DNA from: Gammaproteobacteria bacterium
GTDB lineage: Bacteria; Pseudomonadota; Gammaproteobacteria; GCA-001735895
Direction of reading: 5' to 3'
Assembly (NCBI GenBank): GCA_047622345.1
Contig: JBLHOA010000002.1
Coordinates: forward strand, 1-51,649
Length of the DNA stretch: 51,649 nucleotides
The position numbers and the translations under genes were made by a program. This document shows positions 5,021-36,585 of the stretch, piece after piece. Within the stretch, counting starts at the first letter, position 1; the number at the start of each line of letters is the position of its first letter. A model generated the notes under the pieces. That model made no database searches and was not told the origin of the DNA. It saw only the letters and a program-made list of their open reading frames with translations.

Positions 5021-5092
5021 CGCGGGTGATTGAGGAGCGTTGCGACAGCTAAAGCTGCCAGGCTTGACACCGCGTGATTCGAACGGCGCTCA
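5021..5092 (+). ncRNA. SAH (S-adenosylhomocysteine) riboswitch
   Basis: Hallmark GAGGAGCGTTGC...CCAGGCT...AACGGCGCTCA. Outer stem CGCGGGTG-a-TTGAG pairs with CTTGA-CACCGCG; inner hairpin CAGC-TAAA-GCTG; pseudoknot GAGCG (5035-5039) with CGCTC (5087-5091). It sits directly 5' of ahcY, the canonical context. Confidence 0.92.
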
Positions 5093-5113
5093 TAAATAGA
5101 TTGGAGTTTATTT

Positions 5114-7821: not shown

Positions 7822-10800
7822 TTAGACAGCTGCCAGAGCGGACTGGATATTTTCGATTAACTCATCTTCCTGGTATGGCTTACCCATATAATTAGCTACG
7901 CCAATTTCAAAGGCTCGGTCGCGATGTTTTTCGCCGGTTCGTGAGGTAATCATAATAATCGGTATTTTCGAATAATTTGGCTCATTTTGCATATGAGTTG
8001 CCAGTTCAAAGCCATCCATCCGCGGCATTTCAATATCGAGTAGCATCACATCAGGACGAACATCTTCCAGTTGTGCCAGGGCATCAACACCGTCTTTTGC
8101 GGTAACGACCTCATAGTTATGACGCAACAATAACTTACTCGCCACGCGGCGCATAGTTATCGAGTCATCGACCACCATGACGGTGGATCGGGCATTTTGT
8201 TTGCTTAGGGCCTCATCGCTCTGGTAAACAATCTTCACTGGGCTGCTAACACTGTGACGAACCAGGCCGTTGACATCGAGGATCAAAACAATGCTGCCGT
8301 CAGCAAGTATGCTGGCTCCCGACAGACCTTTCACCTGACTCAATTGTTTACCCAGCGTTTTTACCACAATTTCCCGGTTACCCAGCACTTCGTCGACGTG
8401 AACAGCGACCCGTACATCGCCTGACCGGCTAAATATTATCGGTTGTTTTTGATCTTCCGCATGGGACTTGTAACCGTCACTCAGACCGACCAGTTTTGAC
8501 AGGGAGTGCAACGCAAATTTTTGCCCCGCGTATTCAAGCACAGGTTCGCTCTGCTTAAAGTGTTCGACCATTGCCTGGTTTTCGATACGGCTTATGCCCT
8601 CGATACTGATCAGCGGAATGGCATATATTTCATCGCCGCTGCGAATCAGAATCGCCTGGTTGATCGATAAGGTAAACGGTAAGCGCGCGATAAACGACGT
8701 ACCCTGAGAATTGGTTTCGATCTGCAAGATACCGCCCAGTTGTTTGATTTCAATATCAACAACATCCATGCCAACACCGCGACCGGATAACTGGGTAACA
8801 TGCTCGGCAGTGCTAAATCCCGGTTCAAGAATATACTGCACCAGGTCGGCGTCGGCGACATGATGCTCTTTTTCAATCAAGCCTAATTGCAGTGCACGAC
8901 TTCGTACTTTTTCAATATTGACGCCGGCGCCATCGTCAGACACCTTGATGACTATATCCGAACCATCCCGACTGATATCAATCGAAATCGATCCGGCCTC
9001 TGCCTTCCCCTTTTTGACGCGTTCCACCGGGGTTTCGATGCCATGCGACAATGCATTTCGCAGAATATGTTCGAGCGGGGCGACCATGCGATCGAGTACC
9101 TTGTTATCGACTTCGTTTTCTTCACCGGTAATGATCAGGTCGGCCTTTTTGCCCAGTTCCTGACTACTTTGTCGAACCAGACGCCGCAGCCGCGATAGCA
9201 AGCCGGAAAACTTAACCATGCGGCTTTTAATCAGTCCATCCTGCAATTCGGTGCTTACCCGCGATTGCTGTAACAACAAGGTTTCAGAATCCTTTACCTG
9301 TTCGCCGAGCATGCCCTGCAAGCTGGACAAATCATTCACCGACTCACTGAGTGACTTTGATAGTTCCTGAATAAGGGTGTATCGATCCAGTTCAAGCGGA
9401 TCGAATTCGCTACCAGCGCTGGCATCGACCCGGTGGCTGAAATGAACCTGCGCATCGGTTTCGGCTTCAAGACTACGCAATTGACCTTTTAAACGTGCAA
9501 TGGTCTGGCCTAACTCGCCAAGATAAGTGCCAAGGCCGGATACCTGTTGCTCCATTCGAGCACGATAAATACTAACTTCGCCGGCTGAATTGACCAGATT
9601 ATCCAGTAAATCCGCACGCACCCGGATCACGTCCTGGGTTTGCCTTTCAGTCCCGGCCAGAGGTTCCCCGGGTAAGTTGGCGCTGACAATATCAATATCT
9701 TCACTATCAATGTTAATACTGTCATCAAAAATTTCATTGGCGGATTTACCCGATTCACCACGACGCAATTGCTTCAATAACTCGACCTGCGCCGCCGAGT
9801 CGCTCAATGGCTGTCCTAGTTGCGCCTCTAATACCTGCCTGTGGAGTAAATCAAAACTGTTTTTCAGGAGATCGATCACATCGTCATTTTTCTCAACGCG
9901 ACCATCGATTATGGCGATGAACATCGACTCCATTTCATGTGATAAATCGCTGATTCCATTGAGTTCCGCCATTCTGGCGCCACCTTTCAAGGTGTGCAGA
10001 TAGCGCTGCAGTTCCATTACCGAGGTGTAGTCGTAAGAACCGGACTCATCGACTCGCTGAATCGACCAGGCATGCAGAGTATGATCGCTCATCTCAAGCA
10101 ATTCACTGGCTTCTTCAAAGAATATACCCAATAACTCACCATCCTGTGCAGGATCGCCCCCGTCGCTCATCATGGTCAAGGTATCGATAAACTCGCCTGA
10201 CTGTTGCTCCGCCTCCGGGATTTCAACCGTGTGCTCTTCCAGGTCTTCGGCAAATGCGCGTAAGCTGATTTCCAGATCTTTCGGTATCGGGGGCAGCGAT
10301 CGGCTTTCGACCAGTTCGCTGGTCATTTCATGCATCGCTTTGTGTCCTTCGCGATAAAGCGCAATTATTTCGTGGTCGAGCGCCAATCTCTGTGCAATCG
10401 CCGACTTCAATGGTTTTTCTAATAGTCCTGCGAGCTCACCAATGGAGGAGATATCGGCGGTGCGCGATGCGCCGTGGATGGTGTGTAAGGCGCGGTAAAT
10501 TTCTTCGCCGGGAATAAGTTCGCCTATTTGATCGGCTCGATCAAGGGCGGAATTTATTGTGCTTAGGTGCTGTTCGACTTCTTGTTGATAAATTATCAGC
10601 AGGTCCGGATCGAAGGAGAGGGCGATTGGTTTTGCTGCGTCCGGTATTGCGGGTGCGCTCACCCCTACCCCTTTTCCAGGCACCGGGCTCTTTGTCGTAT
10701 CTACGAAAGGGTCGGGGGGGGACTCCTCTGGTTCGACAGACTCAGACGCTGCCAGATTCCGGTAATCGTCGGTCAATGAATGATCTTTGCCGGTCGCAGC

Positions 10801-13800
10801 AGCATCGCCAGTTTCTAAAGTGGGAGCTGCGGGGATAGCCCCGGTATTAAAACTGCTTTCCTCGACTACTTCGATCGCATCGTCTATTTCGATCGCATCG
10901 TCTATTTCGATCGCATCGTCTATTTCGATCGCATCGTCTATTTCGATCGCATCGTCTATTTCGATCGCGTCGATTTCTTCACCTTCGAGGTCTATTTCCT
11001 GAGCCAGGTTTTCTAAAATGACCTCTTCTTCAAGATCCGCCAATGATTCTTCAGTTTCAAATAATTGTATTTCAGGAATGTCATCGTCATCCTCAGCAAA
11101 TACGCCAAAGTCATCATCATGTTCAGCAGCTTCCAGGAATTCGATCTGCTCAATTTCGGCCTCTGCCGCAATCACTGACTGCTCATCCAGGTCGATGGGC
11201 TGTGCTGAGCTATCGGCGTAGTCGACCGCAGCAGTGAACGCTTCTTTGTCGGTCGAAGTCATATCTTCGGGGCTTAGCGGGGGTATCGGCGGGACTATCG
11301 ATTCCTCAGCCTCGGCTACGTCGGATTTATCAAGGTCAGCTTCCGGAAAAATGGTATTGTCGAAATCCAGAGGGCTTGCCAGAACAGTGTCACTAAATGA
11401 ATCTGCCGCCGCTTTCTCGCCGGGAGCTACCTGCTCGAAAACCCTTGGGTCAACACGCATCGTATCCGGTTCTATTTGATCAAGTAATCCGCCCAGATTT
11501 AAAGACGGTGGCATAATTTGCGTATCTGCCCCTACACTTTCATTGCTTGAATCGACCTCATCGTCTTCAATAATGCGATCATAAGGCGACTCTACAACGG
11601 ACATTTGCTGGGTGTGTTCGATCAAAACCTGCGCGGCCTTAAACTCGGACAGGGTGCGAGCTACCCCCCGCAAATAGCCGATATTCTTTTCCACCGGTTT
11701 ATTTGTTTTTAACTCTTCAACCAATTGCATCAAAGCTTCGGCGGCTTTGCCAACGGCTTTTATTACCTGCCCCTCAGGCGCTACAGTCTTCTCAATTACC
11801 CGATTCAGCAGTTGCTCGTAATCCCATGCAAATTCACCAATTTTCATCGCGCCGACCAAGCGACCACTACCCTTAATGGTATGAAAAGCACGGCGAATAT
11901 TTTTAATTGCATTCTCATCTTCAGGATGCAGCTTCCAGTCCTGTTGTAGTCGCGCAATATTGATCGATTCTTCTTCTGCTTCCTCAAGGTATATTTCCAG
12001 AATTTCCGGATCACAGCCCGGTCTCAACACTTCCAGTTCTTCTTCTATAGCAACGACATTTATCAGATTCGCCGGGCTAACCGGCTGTGCTGGAGTTTCA
12101 ACCTCATCCCCTACAACAGTATCTTCTAAACTCGCCACATCGAAAACAGCATGAACCGTGTCATCGTGATCGAAACCCGTGGAAGCTTCGTCGACCGGCT
12201 CATCTGCGACCACGTCCTGCGGCTTTTCTCCGACTTCCGGCTCATCTTCAATGCCCGGGCTCACCAGATCGACCTCTATCGATTCTTCAGTGGCAACCAC
12301 CGGAGGTAAATCACCAGGGGGCAGGTTCTCAGAATCGACTACGGGTTCAATCGTGACATTTGTCGCGCCTGCATTGTTGTCGGAAGGCTGGGTTACAGCC
12401 CCGGGAGCTTCCTGCAATTCGACTTGATCAAGGACGCCAGTTTCGATATTTACAGGGTCCGACTCAACTTCAATCTCGACTTCTTCAGCATCGGCGTTAA
12501 CCTGCGCGTTATTCGACAATAAATCCTGCAATTGAATATCGGCAAAATCGAGAATACCAGCCGCATCATTCCGGTGTTCGCCAAGCGCTTCGAGATAATA
12601 CTCAAGGCTTGCGACGACCTGCGACAAGGAATCCAGTCGGCTGCTCTCCATAAATGCAACAATGTCATATCCCTGCAGGTAGTTGAGCAAACCATCCACA
12701 ACGTCAACCGCTCTGGGCTTATTGAGCAGTACCAGCGCACCTTTCGATTCTTTCATCAAGGTGATGCATAACTGTATGTTTTCAATCTGACTGGGATCTT
12801 TTATGAATTCAAGAAGCGCGTTTTTAGTCTTTTGTATATCGTCCAATGCCGCCGTTACAACTGCCGTTAAGACACTGTCCAATTCGTAATCTTTCGATAC
12901 GTCACTTTCCGATCTAGGTTCGTCTTCACTGACCGGTTGCCGTTTTTGCATCTGGTCGAGCGCCTGCTCAATCTGGAGCAATTCAGCGGCCATTTGTAAC
13001 AGATGGTCCTCGCTGGCTTTCTTACTTCCATCGATAATTTGCTTGACTGTTTCAATCTGCGATTCGACTAGCTGGCGCTGCGAACCGAGGCCAATCATCG
13101 CCAGGGTGTCAGAAATAATATGCATTTCCTGAGGAAGATCGCTAAGTAACTCAACCTTGCCTAAATCGCCATTGACATAAACTTCTAGCGTAGACTTCAC
13201 CGATTCGATATCAGACTTCATTGCTTCGGCGACGGTTTTCAACAATGCCTGATTCGGGCCGGCAATGTTATCCAGCACCCGGCTTCGTGCGGCTTCGCTC
13301 GGTAAGAACTCTTCTAAACGATAGGCGGTTTTTATCGCCTGGGTTTTAGGTCCGTCGCATTGCGGTTGCGCGATGTAATAGAGGAAGTTTTTAATCAGCT
13401 CTAACGGTTGCCGTTTGGCCAGACCGCGTTCACCTATAATCAAAATTACCCGAAATAATGCATCTATTTTTCCAAGCAAGCTCTTGATAGATACGCCCAG
13501 TTCGAGCTGTTGGCGGGATACCGATTCGATTAATGCACCGACAATCCACCAAATTCTTGCCACCTGCTCGGACAAAGATCTCTCTTCCAAAGCGGCACAA
13601 ACCATTTCAAGCTTTTTCAGGCTTTCTTCGATGTCTCTATCGCGGATGACGTTGACCAGCGCAATCTGATAAACCGGACGCAATCGCTTCGCCAGAAGTC
13701 TGGAAGCCTGGTTATCATTTTCACTGATTGCATCTACTTCGCTATCTTCCTGATGAACCGAAAGGTCGGGTAAAAACAATAACTTTTCAGAAAATAAATC

Positions 13801-14196
13801 CTCGTTACGGACCGCGCGAATATCATTCAACAACGGCAGGATCGCGATAGGAATATCCCTGTGCCCGGATTGAATATGTTCGAGATAGTCGGGTAGTTGC
13901 AGTACCGCTCTTAGCAGGACTTCAAGCGCAGATTCGTTATGCCGCTCTTCGCCTTCAGTGATAAATTTGGTGAGTGATATCATTTCCTCGGTCAACATGG
14001 CCGCGCCATATTGCTCGATCATCATCAACACGCCTTGAATTACGACGAGCTTTTCTTTAACCGAGAATAGCAACTGTTCTTCGCCGTCCTCCAGATAATG
14101 ATTGAGGTCAGTTTTAATTTCGAACAGATTATCGTCGATGGATGTCTTAACCCATCCGAGAGCACTATGCTTAATTGATAATTGTTGGGAAATCAT
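7822..14196 (-). CDS. chpA: Pil-Chp hybrid histidine kinase ChpA/PilL (multiple Hpt, HATPase, CheW, receiver)
   Basis: Hpt motifs AFHTIKGSG, ALHTIHGAS and YLHTLKGGA; EHILRNALSHGIE, DDGAG, SGRGVGMDVV; C-terminal receiver VVDDS...LLDIEMPRMDG; 2124 aa. Confidence 0.95.
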   Translation of the reverse strand: MISQQLSIKHSALGWVKTSIDDNLFEIKTDLNHYLEDGEEQLLFSVKEKLVVIQGVLMMIEQYGAAMLTEEMISLTKFITEGEERHNESALEVLLRAVLQLPDYLEHIQSGHRDIPIAILPLLNDIRAVRNEDLFSEKLLFLPDLSVHQEDSEVDAISENDNQASRLLAKRLRPVYQIALVNVIRDRDIEESLKKLEMVCAALEERSLSEQVARIWWIVGALIESVSRQQLELGVSIKSLLGKIDALFRVILIIGERGLAKRQPLELIKNFLYYIAQPQCDGPKTQAIKTAYRLEEFLPSEAARSRVLDNIAGPNQALLKTVAEAMKSDIESVKSTLEVYVNGDLGKVELLSDLPQEMHIISDTLAMIGLGSQRQLVESQIETVKQIIDGSKKASEDHLLQMAAELLQIEQALDQMQKRQPVSEDEPRSESDVSKDYELDSVLTAVVTAALDDIQKTKNALLEFIKDPSQIENIQLCITLMKESKGALVLLNKPRAVDVVDGLLNYLQGYDIVAFMESSRLDSLSQVVASLEYYLEALGEHRNDAAGILDFADIQLQDLLSNNAQVNADAEEVEIEVESDPVNIETGVLDQVELQEAPGAVTQPSDNNAGATNVTIEPVVDSENLPPGDLPPVVATEESIEVDLVSPGIEDEPEVGEKPQDVVADEPVDEASTGFDHDDTVHAVFDVASLEDTVVGDEVETPAQPVSPANLINVVAIEEELEVLRPGCDPEILEIYLEEAEEESINIARLQQDWKLHPEDENAIKNIRRAFHTIKGSGRLVGAMKIGEFAWDYEQLLNRVIEKTVAPEGQVIKAVGKAAEALMQLVEELKTNKPVEKNIGYLRGVARTLSEFKAAQVLIEHTQQMSVVESPYDRIIEDDEVDSSNESVGADTQIMPPSLNLGGLLDQIEPDTMRVDPRVFEQVAPGEKAAADSFSDTVLASPLDFDNTIFPEADLDKSDVAEAEESIVPPIPPLSPEDMTSTDKEAFTAAVDYADSSAQPIDLDEQSVIAAEAEIEQIEFLEAAEHDDDFGVFAEDDDDIPEIQLFETEESLADLEEEVILENLAQEIDLEGEEIDAIEIDDAIEIDDAIEIDDAIEIDDAIEIDDAIEVVEESSFNTGAIPAAPTLETGDAAATGKDHSLTDDYRNLAASESVEPEESPPDPFVDTTKSPVPGKGVGVSAPAIPDAAKPIALSFDPDLLIIYQQEVEQHLSTINSALDRADQIGELIPGEEIYRALHTIHGASRTADISSIGELAGLLEKPLKSAIAQRLALDHEIIALYREGHKAMHEMTSELVESRSLPPIPKDLEISLRAFAEDLEEHTVEIPEAEQQSGEFIDTLTMMSDGGDPAQDGELLGIFFEEASELLEMSDHTLHAWSIQRVDESGSYDYTSVMELQRYLHTLKGGARMAELNGISDLSHEMESMFIAIIDGRVEKNDDVIDLLKNSFDLLHRQVLEAQLGQPLSDSAAQVELLKQLRRGESGKSANEIFDDSINIDSEDIDIVSANLPGEPLAGTERQTQDVIRVRADLLDNLVNSAGEVSIYRARMEQQVSGLGTYLGELGQTIARLKGQLRSLEAETDAQVHFSHRVDASAGSEFDPLELDRYTLIQELSKSLSESVNDLSSLQGMLGEQVKDSETLLLQQSRVSTELQDGLIKSRMVKFSGLLSRLRRLVRQSSQELGKKADLIITGEENEVDNKVLDRMVAPLEHILRNALSHGIETPVERVKKGKAEAGSISIDISRDGSDIVIKVSDDGAGVNIEKVRSRALQLGLIEKEHHVADADLVQYILEPGFSTAEHVTQLSGRGVGMDVVDIEIKQLGGILQIETNSQGTSFIARLPFTLSINQAILIRSGDEIYAIPLISIEGISRIENQAMVEHFKQSEPVLEYAGQKFALHSLSKLVGLSDGYKSHAEDQKQPIIFSRSGDVRVAVHVDEVLGNREIVVKTLGKQLSQVKGLSGASILADGSIVLILDVNGLVRHSVSSPVKIVYQSDEALSKQNARSTVMVVDDSITMRRVASKLLLRHNYEVVTAKDGVDALAQLEDVRPDVMLLDIEMPRMDGFELATHMQNEPNYSKIPIIMITSRTGEKHRDRAFEIGVANYMGKPYQEDELIENIQSALAAV
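10870..10968. repeat. In-frame 18-bp tandem repeat (TTCGATCGCATCGTCTAT x5.5) encoding (AIEIDD)n in a ChpA linker
   Basis: Five exact copies starting at 10870, 10888, 10906, 10924 and 10942, plus a 9-nt partial copy. Confidence 0.97.
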
Positions 14197-27368: not shown

Positions 27369-28403
27369 TTATAAAGAATCCGGATTAGCGGCTTTTTTCT
27401 TAGCTTCTTCCTTGGCGACCAAACCCTGGCCCAATAAAGTTTTCAAATTTTGATCCAGGGTCTGCATGCCGACATTTTGCCCAGTTTGAATCGCCGAATA
27501 CATTTGTGCAATCTTGTCTTCACGAATCAGGTTACGAATGGCCGGTGTTCCGATCATGATTTCGTGGGCAGCAACCCGCCCACCGCCGATTTTCTTCAAA
27601 AGGGTCTGCGAGATAACCGCTTTAAGTGATTCTGACAACATCGAACGCACCATCGCCTTTTCGGCTGCTGGAAACACGTCGACTATCCGGTCGATCGTCT
27701 TTGCCGCCGAACTGGTATGCAGAGTTCCAAACACCAGGTGTCCGGTCTCGGCCGCGGACAAAGCCAGCCTGATAGTTTCCAGATCACGCATCTCGCCGAC
27801 CAGTATGGTATCGAGGTCTTCACGAAGCGCCGAACGCAAGGCCTCGCTGAAGCCGAGTGTGTCGCGGTGTACTTCGCGTTGATTGACCAGACAACGCTTA
27901 CTTTCATGAACAAATTCTATCGGGTCTTCTACGGTAAGAATATGGCCATATTCAGTGTCATTCTTGTAATCAACCATACCCGCCAGGGTGGTCGATTTTC
28001 CCGACCCGGTTGGCCCGGTCACCAGCACTATGCCGCGCGGATATTCTGATATTTCCTCGAAAATCTTGGGCGCGCCCAGATCGCCAAGGCTTAAAATCTT
28101 GGAAGGTATGGTTCGAAATACAGCACCGGCACCCCGATTGTGATTAAAGGCATTGACTCTAAATCGAGCCAGACCGGGTATTTCAAACGAGAAATCCGTT
28201 TCCAGAAACTCTTCGTAATCCTTACGCTGTTTATCACTCATGATGTCATAAATCATGTCGTGAACCTGTTTGTGATCCATTTCGGGCACATTAATCCTGC
28301 GTATATCGCCGTCGACCCGGATCATCGGCGGTAGCCCCGCAGAAAGATGCAAATCGGAGGCGCCCTGTTTAACGCCAAAGGCAAGGAGTTGCGCTATATC
28401 CAT
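27369..28403 (-). CDS. pilT: Type IV pilus retraction ATPase PilT
   Basis: MDIAQLLAF..KQGASDLHLSAG, GPTGSGKSTT, AIRNLIRE motif; 344 aa. Confidence 0.97.
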   Translation of the reverse strand: MDIAQLLAFGVKQGASDLHLSAGLPPMIRVDGDIRRINVPEMDHKQVHDMIYDIMSDKQRKDYEEFLETDFSFEIPGLARFRVNAFNHNRGAGAVFRTIPSKILSLGDLGAPKIFEEISEYPRGIVLVTGPTGSGKSTTLAGMVDYKNDTEYGHILTVEDPIEFVHESKRCLVNQREVHRDTLGFSEALRSALREDLDTILVGEMRDLETIRLALSAAETGHLVFGTLHTSSAAKTIDRIVDVFPAAEKAMVRSMLSESLKAVISQTLLKKIGGGRVAAHEIMIGTPAIRNLIREDKIAQMYSAIQTGQNVGMQTLDQNLKTLLGQGLVAKEEAKKKAANPDSL

Positions 28404-28491
28404 GGAATTTCCTTCAAATGAGAATCGGTTATTAAAATTTTCACAGGTTTATGGTGAACTCTGCAGTTTTACGTTACGGCACGAGGCCAAA

Positions 28492-28505
28492 CGAATTATA
28501 ATTCG
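28492..28505. promoter_or_regulatory. Perfect 14-bp palindrome carrying TATAAT on both strands between divergent pilT and yggS
   Basis: CGAATTATAATTCG; TATAAT at 28497-28502 (+) and 28495-28500 (-). Matching -35 boxes are weak. Confidence 0.45.
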
Positions 28506-28590
28506 GACTATCTTGCACTTTTAAATTGCGTCGCTTTTCCACCGACAGTCCGAATAGCGTTATTTGTTGGGCTAAACTATAGCAAACCCT

Positions 28591-29274
28591 ATGCAGAACA
28601 TCGAAAAAAATCTCAGCCATTTACAAAGCCTGATTGAAACCGACGCAAACAAATATGGGCGCCAGGCAAATTCAATTTTGCTACTCGCGGTAAGCAAGAA
28701 AATGCCGGCGGACGCAATACGAGCCGCGCAGCGGCTTGGACAACGTGATTTCGGCGAAAACTATTTGCAGGAAGCTCTCGAAAAGATCGATGAATTAGGG
28801 AAGCTTGACCTGATCTGGCACTTTATCGGCGCAATTCAATCCAATAAAACACGTAATATCGCGGAGAACTTCGCCTGGGTACATTGCGTTGACCGGCTCA
28901 AAATCGCGCAACGACTAAGCGAGCAACGACCGGCATCACTGCCGGCTTTGAACGTCTGCATCCAGGTCAACCTGGATGACGAGGCCGGTAAAGCTGGCAT
29001 TCCTGTCGACCAGATCCAGGAACTGGCCGCCTCGATTAGTCCGTTGAAAAACATTCGCCTGCGTGGATTGATGGCGATACCGGAAAAACGCAGCGATATT
29101 TCAGCCCAGCGTGAAGCCTTTGCCCGGCTCAGAACTGCACTTCAGGAGCTACAACAACAGGGTCTTAATTGCGACACCTTGTCGATGGGAATGAGTGGAG
29201 ACCTTGAGGCAGCGATTGCAGAAGGTTCGACACTGGTTAGAATAGGCACAGCTATATTCGGGGAAAGGACATGA
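28591..29274 (+). CDS. yggS: PLP homeostasis protein YggS
   Basis: LLAVSK, FGENYLQE, WHFIG.IQSNK, LSMGMSGD, VRIGTAIFG. Confidence 0.96.
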   Translation: MQNIEKNLSHLQSLIETDANKYGRQANSILLLAVSKKMPADAIRAAQRLGQRDFGENYLQEALEKIDELGKLDLIWHFIGAIQSNKTRNIAENFAWVHCVDRLKIAQRLSEQRPASLPALNVCIQVNLDDEAGKAGIPVDQIQELAASISPLKNIRLRGLMAIPEKRSDISAQREAFARLRTALQELQQQGLNCDTLSMGMSGDLEAAIAEGSTLVRIGTAIFGERT

Positions 29275-30089
29275 GTCAGAAAATTTGTTTTGTCGGCGGC
29301 GGCAACATGGCTGCCAGTTTGATCGGAGGGTTGATTGCTGATCAATATAGCCCCGAGGATATTTGCGCCAGCGATATCGATCAGCAGCAATTGGCCAGTC
29401 TAAGCGATCGATTTGGTATCGAAACTTCGACTGACAACATTGAACTGGCTTCTTCGTCCGACGTAATAGTGCTGGCGATCAAGCCACAAGTGATGCGTGA
29501 GGTCTGTGAAAATCTGTCGATGCTTGGCACCAGTTCGAAACAACTATTCATCAGCATCGCCGCCGGAGTGCCGGCAACTGCCATCGATAAATGGCTCGGA
29601 GCAAACCGTCCAATCGTGCGCTGTATGCCCAATACCCCGGCGTTGTTACAACTGGGTGCGAGCGGCCTGTTTGCCAATGCCAGGGTCGATGCAGAGCAGA
29701 AAGAGCTGGCACTGCAGATAATGCAGGCTGTGGGTATCGGTTTGTGGGTGGACAGCGAAGATCAACTCGATGCAGTAACGGCTATATCCGGCAGCGGGCC
29801 AGCCTATTTCTTTTATTTTATTGAACTGCTGGTAGCTGCCGGAACGAAACTGGGCTTACCGGCCGACACTGCCGCAAAGCTGGCGCGGCAAACCGCACTC
29901 GGCGCGGCAAACATGGCCATCGATGGCGACGTCGTCGAACTTCGCGCGCAAGTGACCTCAAAAAAAGGAACAACCGAACAAGCCATTCTTTCATTTCAGC
30001 GCAACCACCTCGATCAACTGGTTAACCAGGCAACCGAAGCTGCCCGGCACCGATCGCAGGAACTGGCTGAAGAATTGACCAAACCCTGA
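29271..30089 (+). CDS. proC: Pyrroline-5-carboxylate reductase
   Basis: GGGNMA, RCMPNTP, SGSGPAY, VTSKKGTT. Confidence 0.96.
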   Translation: MSQKICFVGGGNMAASLIGGLIADQYSPEDICASDIDQQQLASLSDRFGIETSTDNIELASSSDVIVLAIKPQVMREVCENLSMLGTSSKQLFISIAAGVPATAIDKWLGANRPIVRCMPNTPALLQLGASGLFANARVDAEQKELALQIMQAVGIGLWVDSEDQLDAVTAISGSGPAYFFYFIELLVAAGTKLGLPADTAAKLARQTALGAANMAIDGDVVELRAQVTSKKGTTEQAILSFQRNHLDQLVNQATEAARHRSQELAEELTKP

Positions 30090-30097
30090 GTAAAACA

Positions 30098-30703
30098 ATG
30101 AATTCAAGCTATCTCATTTCACCGTTTATGTTGATCATTAACACCCTGTTCGACCTGTATGTTCTGTTGGTGTTATTGCGTTTTTTATTACAATTGCTGC
30201 GCGCCGACTTTTACAACCCGGTATCCCAGTTTATTGTCAAAGTGACCGCGGCCCCGCTGAAGATTTTGCGGCGCTTCATTCCAAGTATTGCGGGCCAGGA
30301 TAGCGCCTCAATTGTTCTGTGCCTGTCGATCATTTACCTGAAATTCATCATTCTGCGCGCCCTTTCGATTCCCGCGGTTCAAATCGGCGCCGCGGTAGCT
30401 CCGATCGGCGGAGTCAGCTATGCCGGTCTATTCGTCATCAGCATCGCCGACCTGGTTGCGCTGACGATGACCGTCTTCCTGATCGCTATCATCATCCAGG
30501 TTATCCTGAGCTGGATTAGCCCGGGCCAATATAATCCCGTAATCGGGCTGGTTCAGAAAATTGCCAGTCCGGTGCTCAAACCTATAAAGAAATTAATCCC
30601 GTCGATTGGTGGGCTGGATTTGTCACCGCTGCTCGCGACGCTGGCATTGATGGTTGCCAAGATGCTCATCATTCCACCGCTGGTCCTGCTCGGCAGCTTT
30701 TGA
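30098..30703 (+). CDS. yggT: YggT family membrane protein
   Basis: RADFYNPVSQF, ILSW, GGLDLSP; follows yggS-proC. Confidence 0.92.
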   Translation: MNSSYLISPFMLIINTLFDLYVLLVLLRFLLQLLRADFYNPVSQFIVKVTAAPLKILRRFIPSIAGQDSASIVLCLSIIYLKFIILRALSIPAVQIGAAVAPIGGVSYAGLFVISIADLVALTMTVFLIAIIIQVILSWISPGQYNPVIGLVQKIASPVLKPIKKLIPSIGGLDLSPLLATLALMVAKMLIIPPLVLLGSF

Positions 30704-31247: not shown

Positions 31248-32177
31248 ATGACTCTCACCGAATTACGATACATTGTCGCGGTAGCGCAAAAAAATCACTT
31301 TGGTAAAGCAGCCAAGTCCTGTTTTGTCAGCCAACCCACCCTCAGTATCGCGATCAAGAAACTCGAAGAGGAGCTAGGTATTCGTCTGTTTGAACGCAGC
31401 TCTAAAAACGAAATTCGCATCACTGAAATCGGACAACAGGTCATCAATCAGGCGCAAATCGTTCTGCAGGAAGCGCAGATTCTAGCCGAAATAGCGCAAC
31501 AGGGTAAAGACCCACTGCGGGGTCAGTTCAAACTTGGCGTAATCTACACCATCGGCCCGTATTTGCTACCCAGCCTGATTCCCAAACTGCGCGTCAATGT
31601 GCCGGATTTAAAGCTGATTATCGAAGAAAATTTTACCGCCAATCTTTTCCAGTCACTGAAACAGGGCTCGTTAGACGCGATTATTATTTCCTATCCGTTT
31701 GACGAGCCCGGCATCGAGACAGCCCCGCTTTATGACGAACCATTTGTCGTAGCCATACCCCAATCCCACGAATGGAAAGATCGCGACTTCATCCCTCCCG
31801 CGGATCTGACCGGGCAGGATTTAATGCTATTGGGCGCGGGCCACTGTTTTCGGGACCAGGTGATTAAGGCCTGCCCTAACTGCATGGCCGGTAACAGCGA
31901 CCTAACCCGCACGCTTGAGGGAGGCTCGCTGGAAACCATACGCCACATGGTTGCCGCGGGCACCGGAATTACAGTCCTGCCGCGTACCAGTGTCCTACAA
32001 AGTCAGCAACACGAGTCATTGATTAAAACTATTCCATTCGCCGATCCAGCACCGGTCCGTACCGTCGCTATCGCCTGGCGCAAACACTTTCCAAGAAAAG
32101 AAGCCATTGCAATAATCCGCGACACGATTCAATCAACCCCTCTGGAAGGGGTGAACATTGTGGGTGCGGTAGCATGA
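31248..32177 (+). CDS. oxyR: Hydrogen peroxide sensor OxyR (LysR family)
   Basis: MTLTELRYIVAVA..HFGKAA..CFVSQPTLS HTH; redox cysteines GHCFRDQVIKACPNC; SLETIRHMVA. Confidence 0.93.
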   Translation: MTLTELRYIVAVAQKNHFGKAAKSCFVSQPTLSIAIKKLEEELGIRLFERSSKNEIRITEIGQQVINQAQIVLQEAQILAEIAQQGKDPLRGQFKLGVIYTIGPYLLPSLIPKLRVNVPDLKLIIEENFTANLFQSLKQGSLDAIIISYPFDEPGIETAPLYDEPFVVAIPQSHEWKDRDFIPPADLTGQDLMLLGAGHCFRDQVIKACPNCMAGNSDLTRTLEGGSLETIRHMVAAGTGITVLPRTSVLQSQQHESLIKTIPFADPAPVRTVAIAWRKHFPRKEAIAIIRDTIQSTPLEGVNIVGAVA

Positions 32178-32488
32178 TTGAAGAACTTATCAAACAGGAT
32201 CAGGAATTAACCCGCGCCAAAATCAACAGTGAAACTGCAAAAATCGCCTGGAGCGAACTGCAACGTCATTTCGCTTCCGGAAATATGCTGTTTGTCAGTG
32301 CCCAGCTCGACCTGGTCGAAGTTGCCTTTGCCTTTCATGAAGACGATGCACAAGCGGTCGAACAATGGATGTCCGCAGGCTCGCTGTCGCCTGCCAATGA
32401 TGAACAGGCCAGAAACTGGTACCAGCAGGATAGTTCGATTTGGGCCGTAGTGGTCAAACCATGGGTTCTGGTGCAGGACGTCAAGTAA
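32174..32488 (+). CDS. DUF2288-like protein
   Basis: ETAKIAWSELQRHFASG...LDLVEVA...WAVVVKPWVLVQ; overlaps oxyR by 4 nt (ATGA). Confidence 0.8.
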   Translation: MIEELIKQDQELTRAKINSETAKIAWSELQRHFASGNMLFVSAQLDLVEVAFAFHEDDAQAVEQWMSAGSLSPANDEQARNWYQQDSSIWAVVVKPWVLVQDVK

Positions 32489-32519
32489 AAGCGCGGCGCT
32501 TTGCCGAAGCGCTTTACTT
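32483..32519 (+). terminator. Stem-loop after oxyR-DUF2288, possible terminator
   Basis: AAGTAAAAGCGC pairs with GCGCTTTACTT (one bulge) around an inner GGC-GCTTT-GCC; no long U tract follows. Confidence 0.45.
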
Positions 32520-32608
32520 ATGGCCATCTAACTTATCGAATCATCGCTATGATGACACCGGAATACTGGTGTAGAATTGCGCGGCTTCCCTGATACACTC
32601 CAACTACC

Positions 32609-32869
32609 ATGCCTAGAGTCACCGTTTACAGTACCGCCAGTTGCATGTTCTGCAGCCGGGCAAAATCGATGCTTGAAAAATGGGCGATCGAATTTGATGA
32701 AATTCGTATTGACCAGGATCAGGCTGCCTTGCTCGAGTTTAACGAAGTAACGAACGGCGCACGCACCGTTCCACAAATCATTATCGACGGCAAAGTCATT
32801 GGTGGTTTCACCGAATTAACCGAGCTTCACATGGATGGTGAGCTTGACCATTTAATGCCAGTACAATAA
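32609..32869 (+). CDS. Dithiol glutaredoxin (GrxC-like)
   Basis: CMFC active site, RTVPQI, IGGFTEL. Confidence 0.9.
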   Translation: MPRVTVYSTASCMFCSRAKSMLEKWAIEFDEIRIDQDQAALLEFNEVTNGARTVPQIIIDGKVIGGFTELTELHMDGELDHLMPVQ

Positions 32870-32877
32870 CAATCATT

Positions 32878-33210
32878 ATGGCCAAATCTACCGAAAAAAC
32901 TTTTCGCATCCAGTTTCATAATAATAATAAAATTTATGAACTCTATGCCCACGAAGTCAGTCAATCGGAAATGATGGGGTTTATCGAAGTAGGCAGGTTT
33001 ATTTTTGGTGAGCAATCGAAAATACTCATCGACCCGGCCGAAGAAAAATTAAAGATCGAATTTGGCAACGTTAAACATACCTTTATTCCACATCACTCGG
33101 TGATTCGTATTGATGAAGTTGATCAAAGTGGTAAGAATCGGATTATCGACAACGATGGCTCGACCGTCACCAGCTTTCCGGGAACAACGAGCATCCCTGG
33201 CAACCAGTAA
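32878..33210 (+). CDS. DUF1820-like protein
   Basis: FRIQFHN..KIYELYA, GFIEV, IDPAEEKLK.EF..V..TFIP.HSVIRIDEV. Confidence 0.78.
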   Translation: MAKSTEKTFRIQFHNNNKIYELYAHEVSQSEMMGFIEVGRFIFGEQSKILIDPAEEKLKIEFGNVKHTFIPHHSVIRIDEVDQSGKNRIIDNDGSTVTSFPGTTSIPGNQ

Positions 33211-34073
33211 TGCCGGATCTTGCAGCGATGCAAATTTCCGCTGTTATCCCCAGCTTCAACCGCGCTTATAGTCTGGAAAGGGCAGTGACATCGGTACTCG
33301 ATCAAAAATCTTCAGTTGAAGAAATAATTCTGGTCGACGATGGCTCCACCGATCGCAGCTGCGATGACCTCGTGGCCAAATACCCGCAGCTGAAATTGAT
33401 CAAACAATCGAATCAAGGCGTCAGCGCCGCCAGAAACACAGGCATTGCAGCCGCCGCTTACGCCTGGATAGCACTACTGGATTCCGATGACAGCTGGCTT
33501 CCGAACAAGATCGAAAGCATTCGTCGGGCACAGCACCAGCACCCCGGCTATGTGCTGTATCATTCCGACGAAATATGGGTGCGCAATGGTAAAAGGGTCA
33601 ATCAAATGAACAAACATCAAAAAGCTGGCGGCTGGATTTTCAATCAGTGCCTATCTTTGTGTGCCATATCCCCATCGGCTGCAGTAATGCAAAAATCGAC
33701 CATTGAGGATCTCGGCATGTTCGACCCTGATCTGCCCGCCTGCGAGGACTATGACCTATGGCTACGCCTTTGCCATCGCTTTCCGGTCTACTATATCGAA
33801 CAGGCTTTGATCACTAAATTCGGCGGCCATGCGGATCAACTGTCGCAAAAATACTGGGGCATGGATCGATTTCGCATTCGTTCGCTTAACCGTTTACTGG
33901 AACAGGAATCGTTGACCGCCGAAAACTTTGCGCCGGCGGTGGCGACTATTGTCGCCAAGCTTGGGATACTGCTGGCTGGCGCCCGTAAACGCGAAAATCA
34001 GCAGGTGCTGGACGAGTTCAAGCCATTACTGCAAAAATGGGAACGGCAAATTAGCGAAGCCATGCCATGTTGA
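33210..34073 (+). CDS. Family 2 (GT-A) glycosyltransferase
   Basis: VIPSFNR, VDDGSTD, NQGVSAARN, LDSDD (DxD), EDYDLWLR, GGHADQLS. Alternative start at 33228. Confidence 0.9.
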   Translation: MPDLAAMQISAVIPSFNRAYSLERAVTSVLDQKSSVEEIILVDDGSTDRSCDDLVAKYPQLKLIKQSNQGVSAARNTGIAAAAYAWIALLDSDDSWLPNKIESIRRAQHQHPGYVLYHSDEIWVRNGKRVNQMNKHQKAGGWIFNQCLSLCAISPSAAVMQKSTIEDLGMFDPDLPACEDYDLWLRLCHRFPVYYIEQALITKFGGHADQLSQKYWGMDRFRIRSLNRLLEQESLTAENFAPAVATIVAKLGILLAGARKRENQQVLDEFKPLLQKWERQISEAMPC

Positions 34074-34876
34074 TCTGGGTATGCGCACTTCATTGCGAAG
34101 CAAAACCAATCATCGATTTTTATCGCCTTAAAAAGTCGCATGAGGAATCAGCCTTCGACCTGTATAGCAATACTGATATGGCTTGCATTATCAGCGGGGT
34201 CGGGAAAATGAACAGTGCGATTGCCACCGCCTGGGTTGCCGCCAAATACTCTGACTGTCGCTCAATTGCCTGGGTTAACCTCGGAACAGCAGGCGCTAGA
34301 GATGCGGCTATAGGGTCTATTTATGCAATCAATCAGGTTTTACAGGCCGCCAACGACAAATCATTTTATTCCCCCTTGATGAAAGTAAATCGAATGGCCA
34401 CCGCCAGCTGTATTACCATCGATCAGGAGCGCGATGATTACCATGCCCAACATCTGTTTGATATGGAGGCCGCTGGATTTTATCAGGCGGCAACCCGCTT
34501 CAGCAGCTTGGAGTTAATCCAGTGTATCAAGGTCATTAGCGACAATAGTAATCATCCCCGCCACCGTGACCGGCAGGCGATTAGCGACTTGATTTACGGC
34601 AATATTGAAGCGATCGATCAGGTTTTCCGGCAATTGATGGTAATCAATCAGGGCATGATAAACCGCGACATCGGCGCACAGGACTGGTTATCGATTTCAG
34701 GTCTGGCGTCATTCAGCCAAACCCAGAAAAACAAACTGCGCGGGCTGTTGCGATACCTACTCAACCGTCAGCATTCAGTGGAAGACATCCAGTGCCAACT
34801 CAAACAATACAGCACGGCTGCGGCAATGATAAAAGCGTTAGAGTTGCTCAGCTTCGACGACAGCAGCAGGCTATAG
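34067..34876 (+). CDS. MTA/SAH nucleosidase-like (PNP/UDP superfamily) protein with a C-terminal extension
   Basis: ALHCEA, SGVGK, NLGTAG, DMEAAGF and KVISD correspond to the MTAN motifs AMEEE, SGIGK, NTGSAG, EMEA and RAISD. Confidence 0.78.
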   Translation: MLIWVCALHCEAKPIIDFYRLKKSHEESAFDLYSNTDMACIISGVGKMNSAIATAWVAAKYSDCRSIAWVNLGTAGARDAAIGSIYAINQVLQAANDKSFYSPLMKVNRMATASCITIDQERDDYHAQHLFDMEAAGFYQAATRFSSLELIQCIKVISDNSNHPRHRDRQAISDLIYGNIEAIDQVFRQLMVINQGMINRDIGAQDWLSISGLASFSQTQKNKLRGLLRYLLNRQHSVEDIQCQLKQYSTAAAMIKALELLSFDDSSRL

Positions 34877-34877
34877 C

Positions 34878-35876
34878 ATGACCAGTTCTGTGTATATCGA
34901 ATCGGATTTACTCGAGCACCCGGTTGCCAGACAGCTACTCGATCGCCTGAAAAACCGGCCGATTGTAGAAATCAAACACTACGGCGAAGTATTCAACCCG
35001 AAGGCACAGAACTTCCGCCTGCAAAAAGCCAACCCTGCAATTATCATCGCGCGTAAAGAGAATCGACAGGTGCTGGCAATCCCCGAAGGCTACGGTCTGG
35101 GGGGTGATCACAACTATTATTTTTCGCATATGTTGAATTGCGTTTACGATTGCCGCTATTGCTTTTTGCAGGGGATGTATCGATCGGCTAACCAGATAAT
35201 CTTCGTTAATTTCGAAGACTTTGCCGCACAGATTGACACTATCTCAGAGCAGCATCGCGGGGAATCCGTCTGGTTTTATTCCGGTTACGACTGCGACAGC
35301 CTGGCTTTCGATCCGATGACAAAATTCAGTGACTATTTTATTCCGGTGATCGAGGCGAATGAAAATGCCTGGCTGGAATTGCGCACCAAAAGCACGCAGA
35401 TTCGATCCCTGCTGAATCGTGAACCGGTACCCCGCGTTGTCACCGCTTTCAGTTTTACCGATCAGCATAGCCACGAAAAGTTAGAGCACGGCGTGCCCAC
35501 GATAGCAAAGCGAATCGATGCGATGAAACGACTGATCGATGCCGGGTGGCCGGTGGGCCTGCGACTCGATCCGGTGATATATCATGATGATTATCAGAAC
35601 GCCTTCCGCCAGTTGCTCGAAAACATGTTTGCAGTGATCGACCCGTTGGCATTGCACTCAGTCAGCCTTGGGAATTTTCGTCTGACTAAAGACCATTACC
35701 GAAAAGTCACCCGCCTCTACCCCGATGAGCCACTATTTGCACAACAGCTCGAACTCAATAATGGCTTAGTCAGTTACCCCCAACAGCTGGAACAGGAAAT
35801 GATCGGCTTCTGCGAGAGTGAACTATTGAGATACATTCCGGCTGAAATTTTTCATCCCTGTGAATGGCATGATTAA
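34878..35876 (+). CDS. Spore photoproduct lyase-like radical SAM enzyme
   Basis: CVYDCRYC (CxxxCxxC) followed by FLQ; ELRTKS; LEHG....KRI.A; GLRLDPVI. These resemble SplB family blocks. Confidence 0.85.
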   Translation: MTSSVYIESDLLEHPVARQLLDRLKNRPIVEIKHYGEVFNPKAQNFRLQKANPAIIIARKENRQVLAIPEGYGLGGDHNYYFSHMLNCVYDCRYCFLQGMYRSANQIIFVNFEDFAAQIDTISEQHRGESVWFYSGYDCDSLAFDPMTKFSDYFIPVIEANENAWLELRTKSTQIRSLLNREPVPRVVTAFSFTDQHSHEKLEHGVPTIAKRIDAMKRLIDAGWPVGLRLDPVIYHDDYQNAFRQLLENMFAVIDPLALHSVSLGNFRLTKDHYRKVTRLYPDEPLFAQQLELNNGLVSYPQQLEQEMIGFCESELLRYIPAEIFHPCEWHD

Positions 35877-36585
35877 AGTAAAGCGTGCCCTGGTTACCGG
35901 TGCGAGTTCGGGAATCGGGATGGCAATCTGCAATCGATTATTAGCGCAGAAATTCGCAGTCGTAGGCCTCAGCCGTAGAGGTATGGTTGATCAACTCGAC
36001 GACCCGAATTTTAGTGGATACTCAATCGACTTAGAAGACATCGATAATCTTGCTAAACAGTTATCACCGGTCATTGATGGCAAGGAATTCGATTGCTTTG
36101 TCCACTGCGCCGGCAGTGGCCGTTTCGGGTCGGTCGAACAATTTTCGGTAGCACAAATCGATCAGTCAATCCGCCTCAATCTGACCAGCGCATTAATATT
36201 GAGCCGCGCCATAATCCCGGGATTTCGTCGAAATAAAAAAGGCCGGGTAATATTTATAGGTTCTGAGTCATCACTTACTGCCGGTAAAAAAGGCGCTCTC
36301 TACTCAGCGGCAAAATTCGGCCTGAGGGGATTTAGCCAGGCACTGCGTGAAGACTGCGCCAAAGATGGTATTCAAGTCAGTTTGATCAACCCGGGAATGG
36401 TTCGCAGCCCATTTTTTGATTCGCTTTCATTTCGCCCCGGCGACTTAGCCGAAAATGCAATCAGCCCCGACGATGTTGCCAGGGTTGTGACCCAGATACT
36501 TGAATCGAGTACCGATATCGTCTTCGACGAAATAAATTTGTCACCCCGCGTCAAATCGATAAATTTTTCCAAAAACGACGATTAA
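35869..36585 (+). CDS. Classical short-chain dehydrogenase/reductase, likely NADP(H)
   Basis: TGASSGIG, basic SRR after beta2, GSES, YSAAK, NPGMV. ATG 35869 overlaps the radical SAM stop by 8 nt. Confidence 0.9.
   Translation: MIKVKRALVTGASSGIGMAICNRLLAQKFAVVGLSRRGMVDQLDDPNFSGYSIDLEDIDNLAKQLSPVIDGKEFDCFVHCAGSGRFGSVEQFSVAQIDQSIRLNLTSALILSRAIIPGFRRNKKGRVIFIGSESSLTAGKKGALYSAAKFGLRGFSQALREDCAKDGIQVSLINPGMVRSPFFDSLSFRPGDLAENAISPDDVARVVTQILESSTDIVFDEINLSPRVKSINFSKNDD

Follow-up and report, generated by a model that had tools for sequence, protein, structure and literature searches.

Four enzyme genes at positions 33210–36585 of a 51,649-nucleotide (nt) stretch of gammaproteobacterial DNA (hereafter the window; forward strand of contig JBLHOA010000002.1, assembly GCA_047622345.1, Gammaproteobacteria bacterium, GTDB lineage GCA-001735895) form a real operon, which encodes a family 2 glycosyltransferase (GT2), an adenine nucleosidase-like protein, a radical S-adenosylmethionine (SAM) enzyme with the predicted fold of spore photoproduct lyase (SPL), and a short-chain dehydrogenase/reductase (SDR). 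The core of this module, that is, the nucleosidase, the radical SAM enzyme and the SDR, is co-inherited across phyla, with carriers in habitats that range from marine sediment to the human gut, and the first two of these genes are often fused. The module represents the tailoring logic of a radical SAM enzyme plus a nucleosidase on a different enzyme fold, and it is widespread and misnamed in the databases. Its best explanation is a conserved small-molecule pathway, not DNA repair, in which an acceptor would be adenosylated, depurinated, reduced and glycosylated; this reading is held tentatively, as plausible but somewhat short of probable. The four genes are as follows:

33210–34073, + strand: GT2 (GT-A) glycosyltransferase, 287 amino acids (aa); PF00535, 94.2 bits
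34067–34876, + strand: adenine nucleosidase-like protein with the fold of methylthioadenosine/S-adenosylhomocysteine nucleosidase (MTAN), 269 aa; PF01048, 28.7 bits (cut-off 25.1)
34878–35876, + strand: SPL-fold radical SAM enzyme, 332 aa; PF20903 (SPL), 79.7 bits
35869–36585, + strand: classical SDR, 238 aa from ATG; PF00106, 129.5 bits

Sequence and translations agree with the initial annotation of this stretch, which had given the junctions of the four genes as −7, +1 and −8 nt and had found their core motifs intact. The GT2 and nucleosidase genes overlap by 7 nt (ATGTTGA), a single base lies between the nucleosidase and radical SAM genes (TAG-C-ATG), and the radical SAM and SDR genes overlap by 8 nt (ATGATTAA); an in-frame GTG at 35860 is an alternative start of the SDR. 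All four proteins fall short of every NCBIfam equivalog cut-off. The same annotation knew of no characterised function for the combination, and none was found in the literature searched; nor does that literature, which leaves most subscription journals outside, contain a description of a module of nucleosidase, SPL-like radical SAM enzyme and SDR.

The radical SAM enzyme and its partners

The radical SAM protein has the cluster motif C88-x3-C92-x2-C95, the cysteines of which are invariant in 26/26 sequences and in 110/110 representatives. Its AlphaFold2 model has a predicted local distance difference test score (pLDDT) of 92.9, and in a Foldseek search the SPL structures 4FHC, 4FHF and 4K9R were the sole close matches, with template-modelling (TM) scores of 0.83–0.85 at 17–18% identity; the TM score was 0.44–0.47 against the pyruvate formate-lyase-activating enzyme and 0.38–0.44 against MqnE. 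The Protein Atlas likewise gave SPL-family clusters only for this protein, and in the classification of RadicalSAM.org, as given in PMC9477430, SPL is Megacluster-5-3. A phage SPL-like isomerase that acts on DNA is described in PMC8989533. The likeness to SplB (EC 4.1.99.14; G. thermodenitrificans 4FHC–4FHG; TIGR04070) consists of the fold (TM 0.84), the CX3CX2C site and the SAM-binding residues. The differences are the low identity, scores far below the curated cut-offs (TIGR04070, 86.7 bits vs. 400; TIGR03886, 48.9 vs. 437.55), the absence of the hydrogen-donor and lesion-binding residues, a set of invariant residues of its own, and the partnership with a nucleosidase and usually with an SDR as well.

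Residues were mapped through a phmmer alignment to 4K9R with a chain offset of 27, and their roles were taken from Benjdia et al. 2012 (PMC3467042); the offset was checked by means of the segment CMGHCHYC, which starts at SPL residue 90 according to PMC8989533. The SAM-site residues Lys174, Ser195 and Arg273 of SPL are retained as K171, S192 and R268, and Asn114, Asp143, Glu206 and Arg215 as N111, D140, E203 and R212; an aromatic residue before the third cluster cysteine is also common to both proteins. In contrast, the hydrogen donor is not retained, Cys140 of SPL being aligned with Tyr137 and Ser76 (the position of the Clostridium-type cysteine) with Gly71, and neither are the lesion-binding residues, with Arg193 aligned with Ala190 and Glu268 falling in a two-residue gap. 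Tyr98 of SPL corresponds to Phe96 in the window, and among 290 sequences this position is occupied by Phe in 152, Tyr in 137 and Trp in 1. The mapping covers the aligned part of SPL, beyond which Tyr339, Arg304, Tyr305 and Lys309 are located. On these residues and scores, the enzyme has the SPL fold yet is not SplB, as the initial annotation had held. Thousands of entries in this family carry DNA-repair names (5250 relatives were found), a name that the residue evidence does not support.

The window clade alone has a cysteine, C139, two residues off the position of SPL Cys140, and many distant family members have a cysteine in the Ser76 loop or at position 134. It was considered whether one of the two, C139 or the loop cysteine, is always present, as in the Bacillus and Clostridium forms of SPL; this idea of complementary cysteines was given up, since both regions are free of cysteine in 28 of 130 family representatives (36 of 290 sequences). 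At least 85% of 110 full-length representatives share Y35, F39, Q49, Y81, N87, E167, R169 and D231, all of which differ from SPL; these are mainly polar or aromatic, which is a hint of a polar substrate. The charge of the protein was also tried as a proxy for DNA binding and was uninformative, since the isoelectric point (pI) is 5.6 in the window protein and spans 5.2 to 9.7 in the family (median 8.4).

The nucleosidase has the motifs HCEAKP, DMEAAGF and KVISDN in its translation. E11, M133-E134 and D159 are invariant in 28/28 unfused relatives and correspond in the alignment to AMEQE, EMEA and SD of solved MTANs; in the E. coli enzyme the catalytic residues are numbered 12, 174 and 197. Further columns invariant in all 28 are G44, G46, N71, G73, A75, G76, K155 and N160. 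The family profile matches MTANs only in the PDB, and the structural model (pLDDT 91.5) consists of an MTAN core followed by helices at about 169–267. All Foldseek matches listed down to rank 48 are MTANs or futalosine hydrolases (target TM 0.55–0.65), and a uridine phosphorylase, from the same superfamily, is the first other enzyme (rank 50). PF01048 is the only model that passes (28.7 vs. 25.1), with the equivalog scores below their cut-offs (NF004079, 19.7 vs. 169; TIGR03664, 28.7 vs. 124.7; NF004168, 43.3 vs. 129). That is to say, the protein resembles MTA/SAH nucleosidase (Pfs/MtnN) in fold and in its three catalytic motifs, and it differs in the NF004079 score, in an extra helical C-terminus of about 100 residues, and in that many bacteria have it as a fusion with the radical SAM enzyme. 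Complex prediction for the radical SAM enzyme and the nucleosidase gave a score of 0.77, against 0.60 in one control, and was given no weight either way.

The SDR contains TGASSGIG and YSAAK in the window, and the TGxxxGxG motif and the Ser-Tyr-Lys residues are conserved among 117 module SDRs. Arg36 after the second strand is found in 115 of the 117; since an arginine at this place indicates NADP(H) binding by the usual SDR rule, the module SDR probably uses NADP(H). Its solved relatives include generic FabG-like enzymes. The GT2, with the motifs VDDGS and LLDSDD (acidic, DxD-type), is a generic GT-A enzyme, the solved relatives of which are polysaccharide, teichoic-acid and glycan transferases, and it weakly matches the arsenosugar-associated TIGR04283 (54.9 bits vs. 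a cut-off of 182).

Co-occurrence and fusion of the module genes

A word-indexed search gave 5250 relatives of the radical SAM protein at E ≤ 0.001, and an exhaustive search gave 1958 cluster representatives at E ≤ 0.001 and 338 at E ≤ 1e-30. In the window's genus, a match with E < 1e-80 is present in 21/24 genomes, and in three of these 21 it is partial or split across contigs. Genomes G005 and G010 have only a paralogue of 27–28% identity; a distant SPL-like paralogue of this kind (26–28% identity, open reading frames (ORFs) of about 421–432 aa) occurs in G005, G010, G013, G020 and G022. In the last of these, the radical SAM gene at G022:C207:7053-7836 is in fragments with two in-frame TGA codons, possibly as a pseudogene or possibly through misassembly. 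Relatives with a named source include those from many Methylococcales (among them Methylomonas, Methylobacter and Methyloglobulus) and, at 69% identity, that from the Olavius algarvensis Gamma 3 endosymbiont.

Each module protein was searched in 201 gammaproteobacterial genomes, about one per family; because related genomes are not independent, counts are given with no test statistic. The radical SAM gene (E ≤ 1e-30) is present in 27/201 genomes. The nucleosidase (E ≤ 1e-10) is present in 26/201, of which 24 are within the radical SAM set and 2 outside it; the radical SAM gene stands without the nucleosidase in G075, G140 and G220, and the reverse applies to G177 and G182. The GT2 subfamily (E ≤ 1e-40) occurs in 27/201 genomes, namely in 23 of the 27 radical-SAM-positive ones (all except G096, G117, G128 and G188) versus 4 of the 174 others (G082, G133, G177 and G182). 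For the SDR subfamily (E ≤ 1e-35), found in 20/201, the corresponding counts are 19/27 and 1/174. Module genes may also be co-present and unlinked, e.g., in G093, G097, G026 and G134. In G182, which has no radical SAM match at E ≤ 1e-30, a GT2 gene, a short nucleosidase ORF (207 aa) and an SDR gene lie at G182:C133:6916-9047 with about 100 bp in the radical SAM slot, and this locus looks like a decayed or rearranged module.

The same genomes were used to examine whether the module replaces canonical MTAN. Canonical MTAN is present in 2/27 module-bearing and 10/174 other genomes, and 164 of the 189 genomes without it also lack the radical SAM gene, so that no association exists across the 201 genomes and complementarity was rejected. 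In genome G000, no canonical MTAN was seen, and an MTA/methylthioinosine (MTI) phosphorylase is present instead.

Synteny was analysed in 80 genome loci (radical SAM identity 45–69%) and 80 metagenome loci. In the genome loci, the SDR is directly downstream of the radical SAM gene in 61/75 with enough flank, the nucleosidase directly upstream in 35/76, and the GT2 upstream in 28/67. The 63 loci with all flanks comprise 33 with the SDR only, 16 quartets, 10 with GT2 and nucleosidase, 3 with nucleosidase and SDR, and 1 with the GT2 only. All 33 SDR-only loci belong to Methylococcales and lie beside a divergent proC-yggT pair; where Methylococcales have only the radical SAM-SDR pair, the nucleosidase is encoded elsewhere in the genome (4/5 genomes searched), with a GT2 nearby in 1/4 of these regions. 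Recurrent neighbours in Methylococcales are DsbB, TrkA, a K+ channel, PriA and an amino-acid kinase. The genes beside the nucleosidase where it is unlinked (globin, ferredoxin reductase, APH, Rsd and others) were rejected as partners, as they are not common to the four genomes; in Methylobacter tundripaludum (L105:6523-8789, + strand), for example, genes for a truncated globin and a 2Fe-2S/FAD/NAD reductase precede the nucleosidase, an arrangement that was not seen in the other three regions. A dihydrouridine synthase gene that overlaps the end of the radical SAM gene at L014:10990-11952 (+ strand, complete gammaproteobacterial genome) was considered as a substitute for the SDR and rejected; its placement is taken to be chance, since it is adjacent in only 1 of 169 sequences.

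Beyond the Gammaproteobacteria, many of the 150 best representatives are proteins of about 560–760 aa with the radical SAM family at the C-terminus. Going by their source names, fusions come from candidate division TA06, WOR-3, Bacillota and Eubacteriales, all under the name of hypothetical proteins. Ten longer representatives (425–756 aa) were scanned, and PF01048 was found at the N-terminus in three; a 491-aa protein ends in the beginning of an SDR domain. The fusion N-termini match the window nucleosidase in P0188 (E 5e-23) and P0174 (E 2e-08), and in P0229 Pfam detects the nucleosidase domain where BLASTP gives no match to the window protein. A word-index search for longer fused forms returned one only, a 657-aa gammaproteobacterial protein.

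The 80 metagenome loci, which include human-gut contigs, were retrieved with an alignment of 18 fusions. An SDR related to that of the window directly follows in 56/71 loci with enough flank, a nucleosidase match precedes the radical SAM part or is fused to it in 53/71, and no GT2 is near any of the 59 loci examined for it (0/59). Therefore, the universal core is nucleosidase, radical SAM enzyme and SDR, the first two often fused, and the GT2 is a gammaproteobacterial addition to it. The initial annotation had made its proposal depend on the genes co-occurring elsewhere and had asked about co-occurrence across phyla: the genes do co-occur, both in the 201-genome survey and in the fusion loci, and the wider claim holds for the nucleosidase, the radical SAM enzyme and the SDR and fails for the GT2, which is gammaproteobacterial only (23/27 genomes; 0/59 fusion loci).

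Other annotated recurrent neighbours at the fusion loci are lineage-specific (CobW, peptidase C69, MatE, MYG1 and an ABC ATPase). One fusion in a named organism is the following:

NZ_CP084075.1, 1186666–1199607 (locus L190): Fusobacterium vincentii, 623-aa fusion plus SDR

This module is flanked by genes for YjbR, an MBL hydrolase, a UDG-superfamily protein and 5-formyltetrahydrofolate (5-FTHF) cyclo-ligase; these, together with an SIS-CBS and an FAD protein, were rejected as partners, being almost confined to Fusobacterium-like loci. NZ_CP084075.1 is labelled a plasmid, yet it is circular and 2.1 Mb long and is probably the chromosome. A link to phages was also rejected: it consisted of two matches to 'UNVERIFIED Bacteriophage sp.' fecal contigs, and the one examined carries bacterial housekeeping genes. 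In that contig (L191, MT835514.1 19494–38441), genes for cation efflux, a phospholipase D (PLD)-type synthase, an FGGY kinase and a helicase are found, and the contig does not look like a phage. The order in L191 is SDR, a 160-aa ORF and radical SAM, so that the gene order varies and the set is kept. Since the module is present in cultivable methanotrophs (Methylomonas, Methylobacter) and in Fusobacterium, its chemistry is directly testable.

Proposed pathway and rival explanations

The constant pairing or fusion of a radical SAM enzyme, a nucleosidase and a reductase points to an unexplored use of the ribose of SAM or of a SAM by-product. In the small-molecule pathway that we tentatively favour, in agreement with the proposal of the initial annotation, the radical SAM enzyme would cleave SAM and join the 5′-deoxyadenosyl radical to an unsaturated, probably polar acceptor; the partner nucleosidase would then hydrolyse adenine off the 5′-substituted adenosine, leaving a C5-linked ribosyl group; the NADPH-type SDR would reduce the freed aldehyde/hemiacetal (or a keto group) to a polyol; and in Gammaproteobacteria the GT2 would add a sugar. 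The pathway is favoured because of the dedicated or fused nucleosidase, the lack of a conserved protein hydrogen donor, and an enzyme set like that of the hopanoid side-chain route. The nucleosidase is retained with one radical SAM family and is fused to it, which suggests the adenosyl product of that enzyme as the nucleosidase substrate. A narrower version, possible but rather doubtful, is that the SPL-fold enzyme and its bound or fused nucleosidase make a SAM-derived C5 ribose polyol or sugar chain on a common polar acceptor, which is glycosylated in Gammaproteobacteria. If true, the SPL family would gain a new reaction type, with a new class of SAM-derived product made by methanotrophs, Fusobacterium, human-gut Bacillota and relatives of marine sulfur oxidisers.

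The closest parallel is hopanoid side-chain synthesis, in which, according to the section of the review PMC13459092 on this route, HpnH adds an adenosyl group, HpnG removes adenine and HpnI (a GT2) glycosylates, and the reduction of ribosylhopane to the tetrol has no assigned enzyme. The module has the same logical order of a radical SAM enzyme, an adenine remover of the PNP/MTAN superfamily, a ribosyl-end reduction and a GT2. It differs in the SPL fold of its radical SAM enzyme, which is unlike HpnH, in its constant SDR partner for the step with no assigned enzyme in hopanoids, and in its occurrence in Fusobacterium and gut contigs as well. To our knowledge, hopanoid synthesis is not known in Fusobacterium or in the gut-contig bacteria. 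The HpnH, HpnG and HpnI models gave no match to the module proteins at E ≤ 0.001, HpnB gave only 22.3 bits vs. 379, and no squalene-hopene cyclase (PF13243) turned up in G000, although at 88.5% completeness of that genome its absence is not proven. On these comparisons, the module is not the hopanoid pathway itself. A second parallel is found in the futalosine route and in ArsS: MqnE and ArsS are radical SAM enzymes of adenosyl transfer, and MqnB/MTAN removes adenine, the same pair of steps as proposed here. The module nucleosidase weakly matches futalosine hydrolase (TIGR03664), solved examples of which are among its structural matches; the differences lie in the scores given above for TIGR03664 and, on the arsenosugar side, TIGR04283, and in the other fold of MqnE. 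If adenosyl transfer is true, the SPL-fold enzymes would be a fourth, structurally unrelated family for this rare reaction type, and the SDR would be a candidate enzyme type for the hopanoid ribosyl-to-polyol reduction.

Several observations weigh against adenosyl transfer. The observations do not distinguish adenosyl transfer from ordinary hydrogen abstraction, and the radical SAM enzymes known to adenosylate are of different folds (TM only 0.38–0.44 for MqnE). In the window clade, C139 may leave room for an SPL-like hydrogen-return step. Under the thresholds used, 8 of the 27 radical-SAM-positive genomes are without the SDR subfamily, 4 without the GT2 and 3 without the nucleosidase. The 18 aligned fusions retain Glu11 in 13, the Glu of the Met-Glu pair in 17 and the Asp in 14; since some fusions have lost catalytic residues, catalysis by the nucleosidase domain would not always be needed. 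As no canonical MTAN was seen in G000, the module nucleosidase could also be the 5′-deoxyadenosine hydrolase of that genome. With regard to the degenerate domains, P0174, P0204, P0215 and P0190 have lost the catalytic Glu, the Met-Glu or the Asp, or keep the first half only; in a 506-aa protein, a degenerate first half is all that remains of the domain. The domain may also have a structural role.

The main rival explanation is that the radical SAM enzyme performs ordinary hydrogen abstraction on a small polar substrate, in a reaction of the lyase, isomerase or dehydratase type, that the nucleosidase only clears inhibitory 5′-deoxyadenosine, and that the SDR and, where present, the GT2 act on the real product, which we regard as a serious possibility though an unlikely one. 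MTAN is known to relieve product inhibition of radical SAM enzymes, and the lack of canonical MTAN in G000 and the degenerate nucleosidase domain of some fusions are in line with such a role. The residues common with SPL are those of the SAM site (K171, S192 and R268), and SPL itself, which has the same fold, works by hydrogen abstraction and β-scission according to the part of PMC3467042 on its mechanism. The invariance of the nucleosidase catalytic residues in the 28/28 unfused relatives fits the clearing of 5′-deoxyadenosine and the processing of an adenosyl product alike. The explanation is weakened by the fact that cells have many radical SAM enzymes, and only this family was seen paired or fused with a nucleosidase in the searches run, and that canonical MTAN is no rarer in carriers (2/27 vs. 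10/174). It is improbable, by comparison, that the trio salvages MTA, SAH or 5′-deoxyadenosine, with the nucleosidase and a radical cleavage of the ribose acting in either order and the SDR reducing the keto sugar; a radical C–S scission freeing methanethiol or homocysteine would be one form of this scheme. MTAN-type enzymes do act on these very substrates, judging from the names of the solved relatives, the trio is self-contained with no other partner conserved across phyla, and the missing cysteine is in keeping with a leaving thiyl radical, for which a protein hydrogen donor would be superfluous. The cysB gene directly downstream in the window's genus would also suit it, but that neighbourhood is limited to one genus, the GT2 would have no role although it tracks the module in Gammaproteobacteria, and G000 already has MTA/MTI phosphorylase and also an SAH riboswitch before the ORF at 5114–6532. 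The scheme is moreover purely inferential, and we know of no enzyme that performs such a radical cleavage of a 5-substituted ribose.

In the databases the homologues go by 'DNA photolyase' and 'spore photoproduct lyase', names that imply an enzyme of DNA or RNA repair or modification. SPL being the sole close structural relative, a β-hairpin followed by a conserved Tyr being predicted at residues 292–300, and the median family pI being 8.4, such a role has something to recommend it. It is nevertheless very improbable for the module: TIGR04070 and TIGR03886 are both missed by a wide margin (86.7 vs. 400 and 48.9 vs. 437.55), the Cys140, Ser76, Arg193 and Glu268 positions are not kept, the window protein is acidic (pI 5.6), and its constant company consists of an SDR and a nucleosidase for small molecules. 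The relatives with names are, in addition, Gammaproteobacteria, a class in which endospore formation is not known. Least probable, indeed hardly to be expected, is a pterin glycoside or another folate- or queuosine-related product, which the initial annotation had offered as an alternative together with a check for folE and queD; no such gene, that is, no gene of the GTP cyclohydrolase or pyruvoyltetrahydropterin synthase type, is among the annotated recurrent neighbour families. Sepiapterin reductase 2bd0 is one of the solved SDR relatives (E 5.9e-18), but it is only twelfth among generic FabG-like matches, and the 5-FTHF cyclo-ligase gene lies close to the module in L014 and Fusobacterium, which are unrelated lineages, and in none of the other loci searched. 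The window and 8 of the 80 fusion loci were searched for riboswitches, and none precedes the module in either. QueL (queuine lyase) was considered as a radical enzyme that might be related; no paper naming both spore photoproduct lyase and queuine was found in the literature searched, and the texts consulted on QueL name no fold.

Transcription unit and surrounding genes

The genes around the module in the window are as follows:

31248–32177, + strand: OxyR-like LysR regulator, upstream
32174–32488, + strand: DUF2288 gene, upstream
32495–32513, + strand: terminator-like hairpin after the DUF2288 gene, 8-pair stem with 4 G-C pairs (consensus scan)
32609–32869, + strand: glutaredoxin gene (grx), 86 aa; PF00462, 64.8 bits; TIGR02181, 85.1 bits (cut-off 90)
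32878–33210, + strand: DUF1820 gene, 110 aa; PF08850, 128.4 bits
36691–37704: CysB-type regulator, downstream of the SDR; 416.2 bits (cut-off 436)

The TAA stop of the DUF1820 gene and the ATG of the GT2 share 1 nt (TAATG). Because grx and the DUF1820 gene come after the hairpin at 32495–32513, the transcription unit probably begins at grx and, as far as the gene arrangement indicates, probably reads grx-DUF1820-GT2-nucleosidase-radical SAM-SDR, with the hairpin as its probable upstream limit. The consensus scan found 10 such terminator sites in the region against 7.9 expected, which makes a single site weak evidence alone. A TGn-TAGAAT at 32570–32577 resembles, by eye, an extended −10 element, and it is absent from the list of the consensus scan.

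In the window's genus grx adjoins the module, and in loci L031, L033 and L041 it is located downstream of the SDR. The DUF1820 gene occurs in 100/201 gammaproteobacterial genomes, namely in 14/27 with the radical SAM gene and 86/174 without it, a tally that includes two genomes flagged as unpublished (G170 and G068). As DUF1820 is about as frequent with as without the radical SAM gene, grx and DUF1820 were rejected as specific partners and are regarded as co-located genes.

The cysB neighbourhood of the module is likewise restricted to the window's genus. Farther downstream, the opposite strand carries genes for a PAS-GGDEF-EAL protein, a rhodanese, MsrA and an EEP-family protein. On the upstream side, at 27369–30703, a PilT-like ATPase gene is divergent from yggS-, proC- and yggT-like genes, and this proC/yggT vicinity may be a remnant of an ancestral synteny common with the proC-yggT-flanked radical SAM-SDR pair of Methylococcales. 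At a distance from the module, an SAH riboswitch (RF01057, 44.3 bits; gathering score 37) lies at 5025–5098 (+ strand), just before the 472-aa ORF at 5114–6532, and at 7822–14196 (− strand) there is a 2124-aa ORF, with ORFs of 718 and 177 aa coming after it on that strand.

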